Shown here: positions 39,582 to 42,905 of the stretch, one piece after another | Numbering within the stretch: position 1 is the first letter of the stretch | Layout: every line of letters begins with the position of its first letter | Virus record (IMG/VR): IMGVR_UViG_3300046170_000301 | Length of the DNA: 64,000 bases | Origin: a virus | Direction: 5' to 3' (one strand) | Translations under genes and position numbers: made by a program | The notes under the pieces: model-generated | What the model was told of the DNA's origin: nothing | Database searches by the model: none | Seen by the model: the letters and a program-made list of their open reading frames with translations, nothing else

Positions 39582-39944
39582 TCAAACTCTTGAATAACAA
39601 ACTCTTACATGTCCTTGAGATGGAATTGCAATAGAAGAGAATGCACCGTAAGAAAGATCAAGATCTCTACCACCAACATATGGACCTCGGTCATTCACAC
39701 GAACAATCACAGATTTACCATTAGATTGATTTGTCACTCGTAGTTTAGTTCCAAAAGGAAACCAACGATGTGCTACAGAATTACCGTAGGCATTGTAGGT
39801 TTCTCCATTAGCAGTTGTCCTACCGTGGTATCCATCACCAATACCATAATGTGAAGCAGTAGTGCATCCGCTGGACGCTTTTGCTTCTGGAGTTGCCAGT
39901 CCCAAAGAAGCAACAGCAAAAAGAATAGATGAAAATAGGCGCAT
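39582..39944 (-). CDS. rlpA: RlpA-like lytic transglycosylase (DPBB domain)
   Basis: Signal peptide; GRTTANGETY, AHRWFPFGT and VRVNDRGPYVGGRDLDLS motifs. Confidence 0.9.
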   Translation of the reverse strand: MRLFSSILFAVASLGLATPEAKASSGCTTASHYGIGDGYHGRTTANGETYNAYGNSVAHRWFPFGTKLRVTNQSNGKSVIVRVNDRGPYVGGRDLDLSYGAFSSIAIPSQGHVRVCYSRV

Positions 39945-40058
39945 TAAAATTAAATTGAACTCGACATCCTCCAAGTGTGCTGGAGGATACCCAACATAAC
40001 ATGGGTTGAGCAGGTTGTCAAGGGGTCAATCTAAATACTTTTAAATCGCCACAATACA

Positions 40059-40211
40059 ATGTATCATATTAACAAAGATGACATCATCAATTTAGTTAGA
40101 GCTTGTGAAAGGTATCAAGAGTCATCAAGTTCAGAATATATGTGGGAGAAGTATCAAAAATTAATAAAAAAATTAAATATCTATTACGAACAGAACTACG
40201 ACCAGAACTAA
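40059..40211 (+). CDS. Hypothetical protein (50 aa)
   Basis: MYHINKDDIINLVRACERYQESSSSEYMWEKY...; CTAAATA at 40031-40037. Confidence 0.55.
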   Translation: MYHINKDDIINLVRACERYQESSSSEYMWEKYQKLIKKLNIYYEQNYDQN

Positions 40212-40666
40212 CTTCTCCAAAGTTTTCCTTCTGCTTTACGTCTCCTAAGTAAACCAGCTTCTACTTTACTACCAGGATTTCTATACATCTCAAGAACTTT
40301 TGGAACATCATTCCAGTTACGTTTTTTTAATGTCCTCGTAATTGTATTGAAACCAGAAGAACCATAGAAGTTAGCACCAAGATTATAAGCAAAACTTAGT
40401 AGTGCTCCACGCTGATTCATATTCATCTCATTCCAGTATGGAATCTTTGTTAGTGGTGGAAGGAACTCTTTCGTAATTTGATTAATTAGAAGAGAATCAG
40501 CAACACTCTGGGATATTTGCTGGTCAAGTGTAAATGGTTTGCCATTGTAATCTCTTATGCTACCCCATCCATTAGTAATAGGAAGACCACCAGAAAGAGG
40601 GTCTGGATATGCTTTTAGATGGCAACCTTCAAACTCTTTAATTAACTCTACTCCTTTTTCTGGCAC
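40208..40666 (-). CDS. GH24 lysozyme (endolysin domain)
   Basis: LIKEFEGCHLKAYPD...GWG, ALLSFAYNLG and GLLRRRKAE motifs. Confidence 0.9.
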   Translation of the reverse strand: MPEKGVELIKEFEGCHLKAYPDPLSGGLPITNGWGSIRDYNGKPFTLDQQISQSVADSLLINQITKEFLPPLTKIPYWNEMNMNQRGALLSFAYNLGANFYGSSGFNTITRTLKKRNWNDVPKVLEMYRNPGSKVEAGLLRRRKAEGKLWRS

Positions 40667-40695
40667 CTCATATTTACTAGTAGGAGTAGAGTTTG

Positions 40696-41394
40696 TTACT
40701 TTTTTGCTTCAAAGGTTCTCCCCCATCCTGACGTAGGACCTTCTGGAGTCCACCTACGAGCCAGTTCTGAACGTTTGTAGATGGTACCCTTGCCGTTGTA
40801 TACCGAGCTTGTGTAGGCGTCGTTGAGGGAGCCGTAGGGGTCGTTGACGACGTAATCACCCGATAGGGTCTTTCCTATGACCACAACCATGTGCCCACCT
40901 GTAGGATTAGCAAGAGTGCCACGATGAAGTATCCCAATAACCACTGGTCTTCGCTTAGAAAGTTCACGATCAAGGTCATTAAAGCTAAGATGATAATGAA
41001 AGCTTGATTTAATTCCATAAGAATTTAACACTCTCGTCTGTACTAAATGGTTTGCAGTGTCACCAATAGAGAACACTTTTCTGATGTAAGCATCATCTCC
41101 TTTCTTACCAAGCAATGTGCCAGGTTTAAAATATTCAAGACACATAGCACAAGCAGAACTATTACAAGTTCTATTGGCATCTCTATAATTATCTGTCTGT
41201 GGATAATATGGAACGTTGAGAACAAGGTCTGCTGGTTTTGCCAACGGTGTTCTATATGTTTTAACCCAATCTGCTTCATCATAAAGAAGTTCTGGTTTCA
41301 ATACAGAAATTTCAGAAGCAAGTTTTGCTACTGCTTCTAAATGTTTCGGATTATTCTCGTCAAAATATTTGAAAAAATTCTTGAAGTCAATCAT
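40696..41394 (-). CDS. C39-like peptidase (cell-wall/lysis associated)
   Basis: LNVPYYPQTDN...CNSSACAM, GGHMVVVIG and VNDPYG catalytic Cys/His/Asp motifs. Confidence 0.85.
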   Translation of the reverse strand: MIDFKNFFKYFDENNPKHLEAVAKLASEISVLKPELLYDEADWVKTYRTPLAKPADLVLNVPYYPQTDNYRDANRTCNSSACAMCLEYFKPGTLLGKKGDDAYIRKVFSIGDTANHLVQTRVLNSYGIKSSFHYHLSFNDLDRELSKRRPVVIGILHRGTLANPTGGHMVVVIGKTLSGDYVVNDPYGSLNDAYTSSVYNGKGTIYKRSELARRWTPEGPTSGWGRTFEAKK

Positions 41395-41762: not shown

Positions 41763-42905
41763 TTAAAGTTTAAATTGTGAAAATTGATTAGATTTCATAT
41801 CTTGCTTTAGACCACCAATTACATATGTTTCTTGCTCCGTTTCTTGTGGAGCAACTTGAAGACCCTTGGAGTTCAACCAGTGCTCAGTCCAAGGAAGTGG
41901 ATTACTATTAGCAGGAACATCAAAGATTGGTTTCAATCCAATAGCTTTGAGACGACGATTGGCAATCCACTCTACATATTTACCTAATAATTTGTCATTA
42001 AGACCAATCATACTTCCATTCTTTGAAGAGGTATTTTGCCCATTGTTTCTCTTCATCAACTGTCTTCTTAAACATTCTGATTGTATTCTCTCTTTCCTTC
42101 TTCTGCGATCTGTTTCATCTCTGGATCATCGCCTTCATTCCATTTGTTCAATATCTGTTGTGTCACAACTACATGCTGGTTCTCATCCCGACTGATGAGG
42201 GATATGATTTTAGCAGATCCTTCCATGAGTTTGAGTTCACCGAATGCAAATGAGCACGCAAATGACACATAGAATCGTATTCCTTCCAGAATATTGACAT
42301 TGGCGATTGCCCTATAGAGTTTCCGTTTGAGTTCATGTCTGTCATAAGTTCCCTGTTGGATGTCCTTCCACTGCATATTTCCACAGATTACCAGAATCGT
42401 ACTCGTGAGCATCGTTCACAAAATCATCATATGATGATGTTACACTTTCTGCACGTTCTAATATTTTCTCGTCTTTTAAAATTGTATCGAATACTTCGGC
42501 TGGATCTGAGTAAACATTCTTGATGATGTATGTGTATGAACGACTATGGATCATCTCCATAAATTGCCAGACGTTCATGCACGCTTCCAACTCTGGAAGA
42601 GAACAATATGGTGCGAATGCCATACCAGGCGCCCTACCTTGAACAGAGTCTAACATGATCTGATATTTCAGATTTGAAGTAAAGATGTGCTTCTGTTCTG
42701 CTGTTAAGTTCTGATAATCAGAACGGTCTTTCTGTAGGGAAACTTCCTCTGGTCTCCAGAAATAGCCTAATTGTTGTTGAGTTAATTTCTCGAACACTGG
42801 ATATTTAGACCCATCGTATCTTTGAACTCCTAAAGGTTGTCCAAAAAACATGGGTTGTTTCTTTGTTTCTACTTCTTTTGTATTAAAAACAGTCAGACCT
42901 GACAC
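41763..42905 (-). CDS. nrdB: Ribonucleotide reductase class Ia beta subunit, broken by several indels in this assembly
   Basis: [33 protein letters not shown] and VAPQETE motifs spread over three ORFs. Confidence 0.88.

Follow-up and report, generated by a model that had tools for sequence, protein, structure and literature searches.

A predicted −1 ribosomal frameshift joining a C39-like peptidase to a GH24 lysozyme is conserved in T4-like cyanophages

Introduction

Among the closest described systems are the transposases of the IS3 family (IS911 and IS150, with their products OrfA and OrfAB), for which it is well established that the heptamer A_AAA_AAG serves as the slip site, that the stop codon of the upstream open reading frame (ORF) lies just past it, and that a stem-loop follows downstream. 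The downstream catalytic domain of these elements lacks its own start, and only the trans-frame fusion supplies it. The same A_AAA_AAG is found in Escherichia coli dnaX, where a hairpin lies at a similar spacing and tau and gamma are two products of one message at a fixed ratio; there, the frameshifted product is the shorter one, and a Shine-Dalgarno (SD) sequence 10 nt upstream contributes. The tail-assembly chaperone gene G/GT of phage lambda likewise has a conserved −1 frameshift that gives a short and a C-terminally extended product. Its slip site is G_GGA_AAG, no structure is required, and the products are structural-assembly factors.

Lysis genes with two domain-sharing polypeptides from one locus are known from the endolysins CD27L, CTP1L, and Lys170, in which internal translation starts are used and the shorter polypeptide consists of the C-terminal binding domain. 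In addition, several cyanophages carry in-frame endolysins (ACG-2014f gp209, S-CBS2 gp054, and S-CREM1 gp9; PHROG 3617 and 10051), which hold the two domains described below and their N-terminal module in one polypeptide, in either domain order. These need no recoding, and only the fusion is made.

T4-like cyanophages are among the most abundant marine viruses, and their lysis of Synechococcus is poorly understood. Here, we analyzed a peptidase-lysozyme pair of such a phage, for which a preliminary description had proposed that the peptidase is made both alone and, by a −1 frameshift, as a peptidase-lysozyme fusion. The putative frameshift site shares its heptamer, stop position, downstream stem-loop, and startless downstream domain with the IS3 family, but it serves a phage lysis pair instead of a transposase and has no conserved upstream SD-like element. 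In contrast to dnaX, the shift would add a whole enzyme domain, and the 0-frame stop follows the heptamer directly. Unlike lambda G/GT, the site would join two catalytic domains, and unlike CD27L and its relatives, the short product would be the N-terminal enzyme and would arise by frameshifting, not by internal initiation.

Results

The locus and its slip site

The window, by which we mean the whole 64,000-nucleotide stretch of DNA analyzed (IMG/VR record IMGVR_UViG_3300046170_000301), comes from a T4-like cyanomyovirus (Kyanoviridae), whose nearest isolate is Synechococcus phage S-PM2 with 71% nucleotide identity over the locus. The neighboring genes in S-PM2 match those of the window, namely, nrdB, a small PD-(D/E)XK/RusA-like nuclease, the peptidase, the lysozyme, and an RlpA-like lipoprotein. 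The match to S-PM2 NrdB, the small subunit of ribonucleotide reductase (window 41766-42866, minus strand), was split over four frame segments (−3, −1, −2, and −3), and these three frame breaks are either assembly indels or marks of a decaying gene. The features of the peptidase-lysozyme region are as follows.

41245..41394, minus strand: N-terminal helical module of about 50 aa before the peptidase domain (pLDDT 79-94 over residues 1-40)
40696..41394, minus strand: 0-frame ORF encoding a C39-like (papain-fold) cysteine peptidase of 232 aa (ORF list, Pfam PF13529; TAA at 40696-40698)
40709..40711, minus strand: −1 frame TGA, one codon upstream of the heptamer (translation)
40699..40705, minus strand: slippery heptamer A_AAA_AAG in X_XXY_YYZ phase
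40644..40693, minus strand: predicted stimulatory hairpin with a 12-bp stem (5' arm 40682-40693, 3' arm 40644-40655; ViennaRNA)
40664..40666, minus strand: GTG inside the hairpin loop, the sole canonical start candidate for a separate lysozyme (ORF list)
40208..40699, minus strand: −1 frame segment of 163 codons, comprising an 11-codon linker and the GH24 lysozyme domain (TAA at 40208-40210; Pfam PF00959)

The peptidase ORF ends in F-E-A-K-K-stop; as read in the preliminary description, its last minus-strand codons are GCA AAA AAG TAA, and the heptamer occupies 40699-40705. Translation of the −1 frame from the heptamer gave S-K-K-V-T-N-S-T-P-T-S-K-Y-E-V-P-E-K-G-V-E-L-I-K-E-F-E-G, which bears out the earlier claim that this frame is open through a Thr/Ser/Pro linker into the lysozyme. 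The −1 frame TGA closes the frame upstream, indicating that the overlap of the two frames is confined to the slip site. The predicted trans-frame product contains 232 + 163 = 395 aa. The lysozyme GTG had also been described as lacking a properly spaced SD sequence, and cctactagtaaatatgag upstream of it indeed has no SD match. The heptamer itself was not rarer than chance, with 40 copies of AAAAAAG in the window compared to 39.9 expected. The motif by itself is therefore no evidence, and its significance rests on the comparative evidence.

Domains of the peptidase and the lysozyme

The Pfam family Peptidase_C39_2 (PF13529) matched residues 59-187 over its full profile with 46.2 bits (cut-off 24), and Q66, C82, H168, and D185 were invariant in an alignment of 30 peptidase sequences. 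An AF2 model of the peptidase was modest (pLDDT 66, with a low active-site region); its top Foldseek matches were all papain-like proteases and were weak (E 0.015-0.1), and a sequence search of the PDB gave no match. The peptidase was found only in cyanophages (105 records), where it is repeatedly fused to cell-wall glycosidases. Both observations support the inference that it is a putative peptidoglycan peptidase acting in lysis. The lysozyme domain matched Phage_lysozyme (PF00959) with 72.1 bits (cut-off 22.3) and contains the catalytic Glu...Asp...Thr motif in the segment EFEG...YPD...PIT, and its relatives in the PDB are GH24 muramidases and endolysins.

The N-terminal module has the consensus I-D-L-H-N-F-F-K..D-E.N-P.H..A-V...W..Y-R over ~48 aa and had no match in Pfam or the Protein Atlas. 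Its comparison with the 50-aa extension of the lysozymes that start at an ATGA overlap (described below) gave an hhalign probability of only 6%. The module may serve in targeting or oligomerization.

Conservation of the heptamer and its phase

A protein-based search of IMG/VR yielded 79 usable loci with 48 distinct junctions, and this set is our unbiased sample. In 60 of the 79 loci, A_AAA_AAG falls on the final codon or two of the peptidase, and the lysozyme lies in the −1 frame. Eleven others showed an ATGA overlap without the heptamer, seven had no adjacent lysozyme, and in one, the two domains were in frame. S-PM2 shares GCA AAA AAG TAA and also has its lysozyme in the −1 frame, and a second, independently deposited S-PM2 genome record showed the identical junction. 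In a frame-anchored pattern scan, contigs with six As numbered at least 120, versus five with seven; these counts were selected for the heptamer, hence they give no estimate of prevalence. Pooled, 175 loci with 109 distinct junctions among the matches listed carry A_AAA_AAG in the same phase. The check proposed in the preliminary description, whether AAAAAAG and the −1 register are conserved in related cyanophages, was thus strongly positive. The −1 frame was open into the lysozyme in 106 distinct junctions (again among the matches listed), with linkers of 6 to 26 codons and spacers that were all 2 mod 3.

The heptamer and its phase were invariant in all 48 distinct junctions of the protein-based sample. 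In these junctions, the codon before the heptamer was GTA, GCA, ACA, ATA, or GAA (Val, Ala, Thr, Ile, or Glu) and always ended in A, and third positions near the heptamer varied freely. The terminal Lys-Lys was always encoded by AAA AAG, compared to 22 of the 98 Lys-Lys pairs in the long ORFs of the window. Peptidases from loci without the cassette stop right after G-W-G-R-x-F and have no K-K, indicating that the slip site is what accounts for the lysines. These features show selection on the nucleotides of the slip site and not on the protein. Moreover, the position of the −1 frame TGA was the same in 92 of the 109 distinct junctions, and a stop codon directly followed the heptamer in 96 of them.

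The downstream hairpin

The preliminary description made no mention of a hairpin past the heptamer. The 70 nt after each heptamer were then folded. In nearly all junctions, a stem of 9-16 bp begins 3-9 nt past the heptamer. The stem in the window (core CTCTACTCC/GGAGTAGAG) begins pairing 6 nt past the heptamer, with a ViennaRNA dG of −17.4 kcal/mol (z −3.1). At least five unrelated stem sequences were observed at the same place, differing completely between clades; examples are GAATCAACACCACA/TGTGGTGTTGATTT, CGCCAACTAA/TTAGTTGGCG, CCCCTC/GGGGGG, and CCCCCACTAT/ATAGTGGGG. In the largest stem family (B), 97.8% of the cells pair, and five pairs show compensatory change, a level reached by none of 500 shuffles, whereas slid controls showed 28-48% pairing. 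The stem family of the window (A) showed 93.5% pairing cells and three compensatory pairs. No such stem was found at that position in loci without the heptamer. The linker reads Ser/Thr/Pro because the 5' arm of the hairpin complements the 3' arm, whose codons specify the opening residues of the lysozyme domain. From folding and covariation alone, we predict that the hairpin is a stimulatory structure.

The hairpin loop TCCCTCAA of the largest stem family has its complement in the E-F-E-G codons, TTGAGGGA, located 12 nt past the stem (for example, L010 3187-3277), and an H-type pseudoknot could form there. Covariation gave no evidence either way for this pseudoknot, both segments being nearly invariant and constrained by the protein. 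The stem family of the window has no such complementarity.

An upstream SD-like stimulator as in dnaX was also considered and is unsupported; only 7 of the 48 distinct junctions have GGAG, GAGG, or AGGA. The GGGGGAG in the window, 12 nt upstream of the heptamer, encodes the conserved W-G-R motif, which is also present in non-frameshift homologs.

Start codons of the lysozyme and seven-A variants

Before the catalytic Glu, ATG, GTG, and TTG are all absent from 52 of the 106 distinct junctions, S-PM2 among them, and 78 contain neither ATG nor GTG. The start codons that do exist are scattered, are not conserved in position, and lack SD-like sequences. The GTG of the window at 40666 is unconserved as well, with S-PM2 having ATT there. 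In a minority lineage (S-SRM01, L059, L066, and others), an ATG overlaps the peptidase stop as ATGA, and in another class (L027 and others), the ATGA overlap occurs and the heptamer is absent. Judging from these ATGA classes, coupled restart does occur in the peptidase-lysozyme gene pair and has clearly arisen in some lineages.

Seven As were found in six loci with two distinct sequences (L008 and L212; L211 and L213-L215), compared to the 175 loci with six As, among the matches listed. Translation of both variants gives precisely the predicted trans-frame product, and both retain the hairpin. One of them was found in four contigs from different samples, and it is probably a real lineage that has lost the requirement for a frameshift. 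The preliminary description had named two findings that would refute it, seven As in the reads, or homologs that lack the heptamer and give the lysozyme its own SD and ATG. Neither refutation succeeded; sequences with seven As proved to be rare (two distinct ones versus 109 with six As), and in most homologs, the lysozyme has no start codon of its own.

A second slip site and other architectures

In S-CAM7 (genus Mazuvirus; L087 ~1880-1935) and two IMG/VR relatives (L216 and L217), the peptidase ends in G-R-V-F-F-P-Q-stop. In this clade, T_TTT_TTT is the phased heptamer, a stop in the −1 frame closely precedes it, and the lysozyme lacks a start codon. Five to six nt downstream lies a long hairpin (GTAGAACC.CCTAA / TTAGG.GGTTCTAC), and the differences between its copies are G-U compatible. 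In a tree made by a quick method, with midpoint rooting only and partly pattern-biased sampling, the S-CAM7 clade fell among in-frame fusions that form a well-supported group. In the other large clade, A_AAA_AAG was the dominant state, and other architectures were nested there as derived states.

Single ORFs with the peptidase followed by the lysozyme were observed in ACG-2014f (about 45 isolates in the phage collection) and in L218-L226, and those with the lysozyme followed by the peptidase in S-CBS2 and S-CREM1. The same peptidase is joined to a glucosaminidase domain (PF01832) in the podovirus S-CBP1 (L090 1360-2262) and to another C-terminal domain in S-N03 (L089 1183-2451); the latter domain had no Pfam match to support the GH19-type resemblance seen by eye, and it is left unassigned. 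The peptidase thus appears, from these combinations, to be a reusable domain of cyanophage endolysins. PHROG 3617 (405 positions) aligned collinearly with both halves of the window product, the peptidase covering 3-235 (E 1e-105) and the −1 frame product 245-405 (E 3e-53). In DSL-LC02 and DSL-LC03, a separate lysozyme is headed by its own copy of the peptidase N-terminal module (BLASTP E 5e-12; L004 2083-2230 and L005 2340-2490), whereas the lysozyme ORF of the frameshift class has no such module.

Discussion

The comparative data support the earlier interpretation that the phage makes the peptidase alone plus a peptidase-lysozyme fusion by a −1 frameshift; the set ratio of the two remains an inference. 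We consider it highly probable that the junction is a canonical −1 programmed ribosomal frameshift, from which a 232-aa peptidase and a 395-aa peptidase-lysozyme fusion would be made. The slippage, its efficiency, and the role of both products in lysis are inferred, as there is no protein, ribosome-profiling, or reporter evidence, and a search of the literature found no proteomic evidence for the trans-frame protein. We propose that most ribosomes would stop at the TAA that adjoins A_AAA_AAG, releasing the 232-aa peptidase, while some would pause at the hairpin with two Lys-tRNAs on AAA-AAG. Promoted by the hairpin, these tRNAs would slip back one base in tandem to AAA-AAA. The adjacent stop codon would probably promote slippage as well; such "shifty stops" are known to do so. 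How readily AAG slips also depends on the tRNA-Lys repertoire of the host. The shifted ribosomes would then read the 11-residue linker and the GH24 domain, giving a 395-aa bifunctional peptidoglycan hydrolase. Since no separate translation start exists for the lysozyme, the fusion would be the form in which it is made, although a minor route from the GTG is not excluded in the window.

Alternatively, the peptidase and the lysozyme could be two ordinary genes, the latter starting at the GTG at 40666 or by termination-reinitiation, with the hairpin regulating this start. The window does have this GTG in frame before the catalytic Glu, so that some independent initiation cannot be excluded in this phage, and the lineages with ATGA overlaps show that coupled restart occurs in the gene pair. 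However, about half of the junctions have no start codon of any kind before the catalytic Glu, and where starts are present, neither a conserved position nor an SD-like sequence accompanies them. Independent genes would also not keep spacers of 2 mod 3 or an invariant, phased heptamer, and the stand-alone lysozymes of DSL-LC02 and DSL-LC03 carry the N-terminal module that is missing from the window lysozyme ORF. We therefore regard two independent genes as improbable.

The same fusion protein would also result if RNA polymerase added one A (one U in S-CAM7) at the slip site, so that the fusion would be in frame in some mRNAs. A homopolymer is indeed present (A6 in the window and T8 in S-CAM7), and the seven-A genomic variants show that a fused ORF is viable. 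Six As are, however, short for efficient slippage by bacterial polymerase, which usually needs 8-9 or more. Furthermore, the run is always in X_XXY_YYZ phase, its seventh base is always G and never a longer run of A, and the structure 3' of the run is conserved at a spacing typical of ribosomal frameshifting; transcriptional slippage is thus quite improbable, somewhat more so than two genes. Least credible of all is an indel introduced by sequencing or assembly, by which the true gene would have seven As and be a simple fusion ORF. The preliminary description had cautioned that this assembly has homopolymer indels, and the caution holds elsewhere, with nrdB broken in frame, but not at the heptamer. 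One extra A would fuse the ORFs, and the two seven-A sequences exist; nevertheless, six As in the same phase were found in many independent samples, and, among the matches listed, the 175 loci against six exclude an assembly error at the heptamer. The two independent S-PM2 records agree as well, and the architecture recurs in the S-CAM7 clade around another slip site.

The cassette has been kept in many lineages even though a single inserted base that fuses the frames is tolerated. This persistence suggests selection for the ratio and for the product with the peptidase alone. As a tentative and rather doubtful proposal, the frameshift could fix the stoichiometry of free peptidase to fusion, in which case the shared N-terminal module could allow a hetero-oligomeric lysin to form, or its efficiency could sense the translational state of the host (nutrient or light) and thereby time lysis.

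The mechanism of frameshifting is textbook, and its context in a lysis gene is new. A full-text literature search, outside which paywalled literature and recoding databases remained, found no published description of a peptidase-lysozyme frameshift, and to our knowledge, no other −1 frameshift joining two catalytic domains of a lysis enzyme has been described. If the prediction is true, a large group of T4-like cyanophages obtains its lysozyme solely through recoding, current annotations are in error, and the known cases of −1 frameshifting gain one in which two catalytic domains of a lysis enzyme are joined. The cyanophages would then also offer a natural series for asking why recoding is kept, including A_AAA_AAG, T_TTT_TTT, ATGA coupling, in-frame fusions in both orders, and separate genes. 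None of the CDSs inspected in the annotations of S-PM2 (two records), S-CAM7, S-SRM01, DSL-LC02, and DSL-LC03 has a slippage join. The "putative lysin" of S-PM2 (S-PM2p157; L001 2559-2777 and L351 1159-1377) is a 219-nt ORF for a 72-aa C-terminal fragment, which begins at an internal ATG and does not include the catalytic Glu; this misannotation arose because a start codon is missing. Similarly, the GenBank annotation of S-CAM7 has only a 273-nt "lysin" ORF.

Directly downstream of the lysozyme, an RlpA-like DPBB protein (PF03330) with a lipoprotein-like N-terminus is encoded at window 39582-39974 (minus strand), and it is possibly part of the lysis module. Its best genome match (82% identity; locus L241) was a contig placed in a Crocinitomicaceae MAG; this contig is probably of cyanophage origin and mis-binned.
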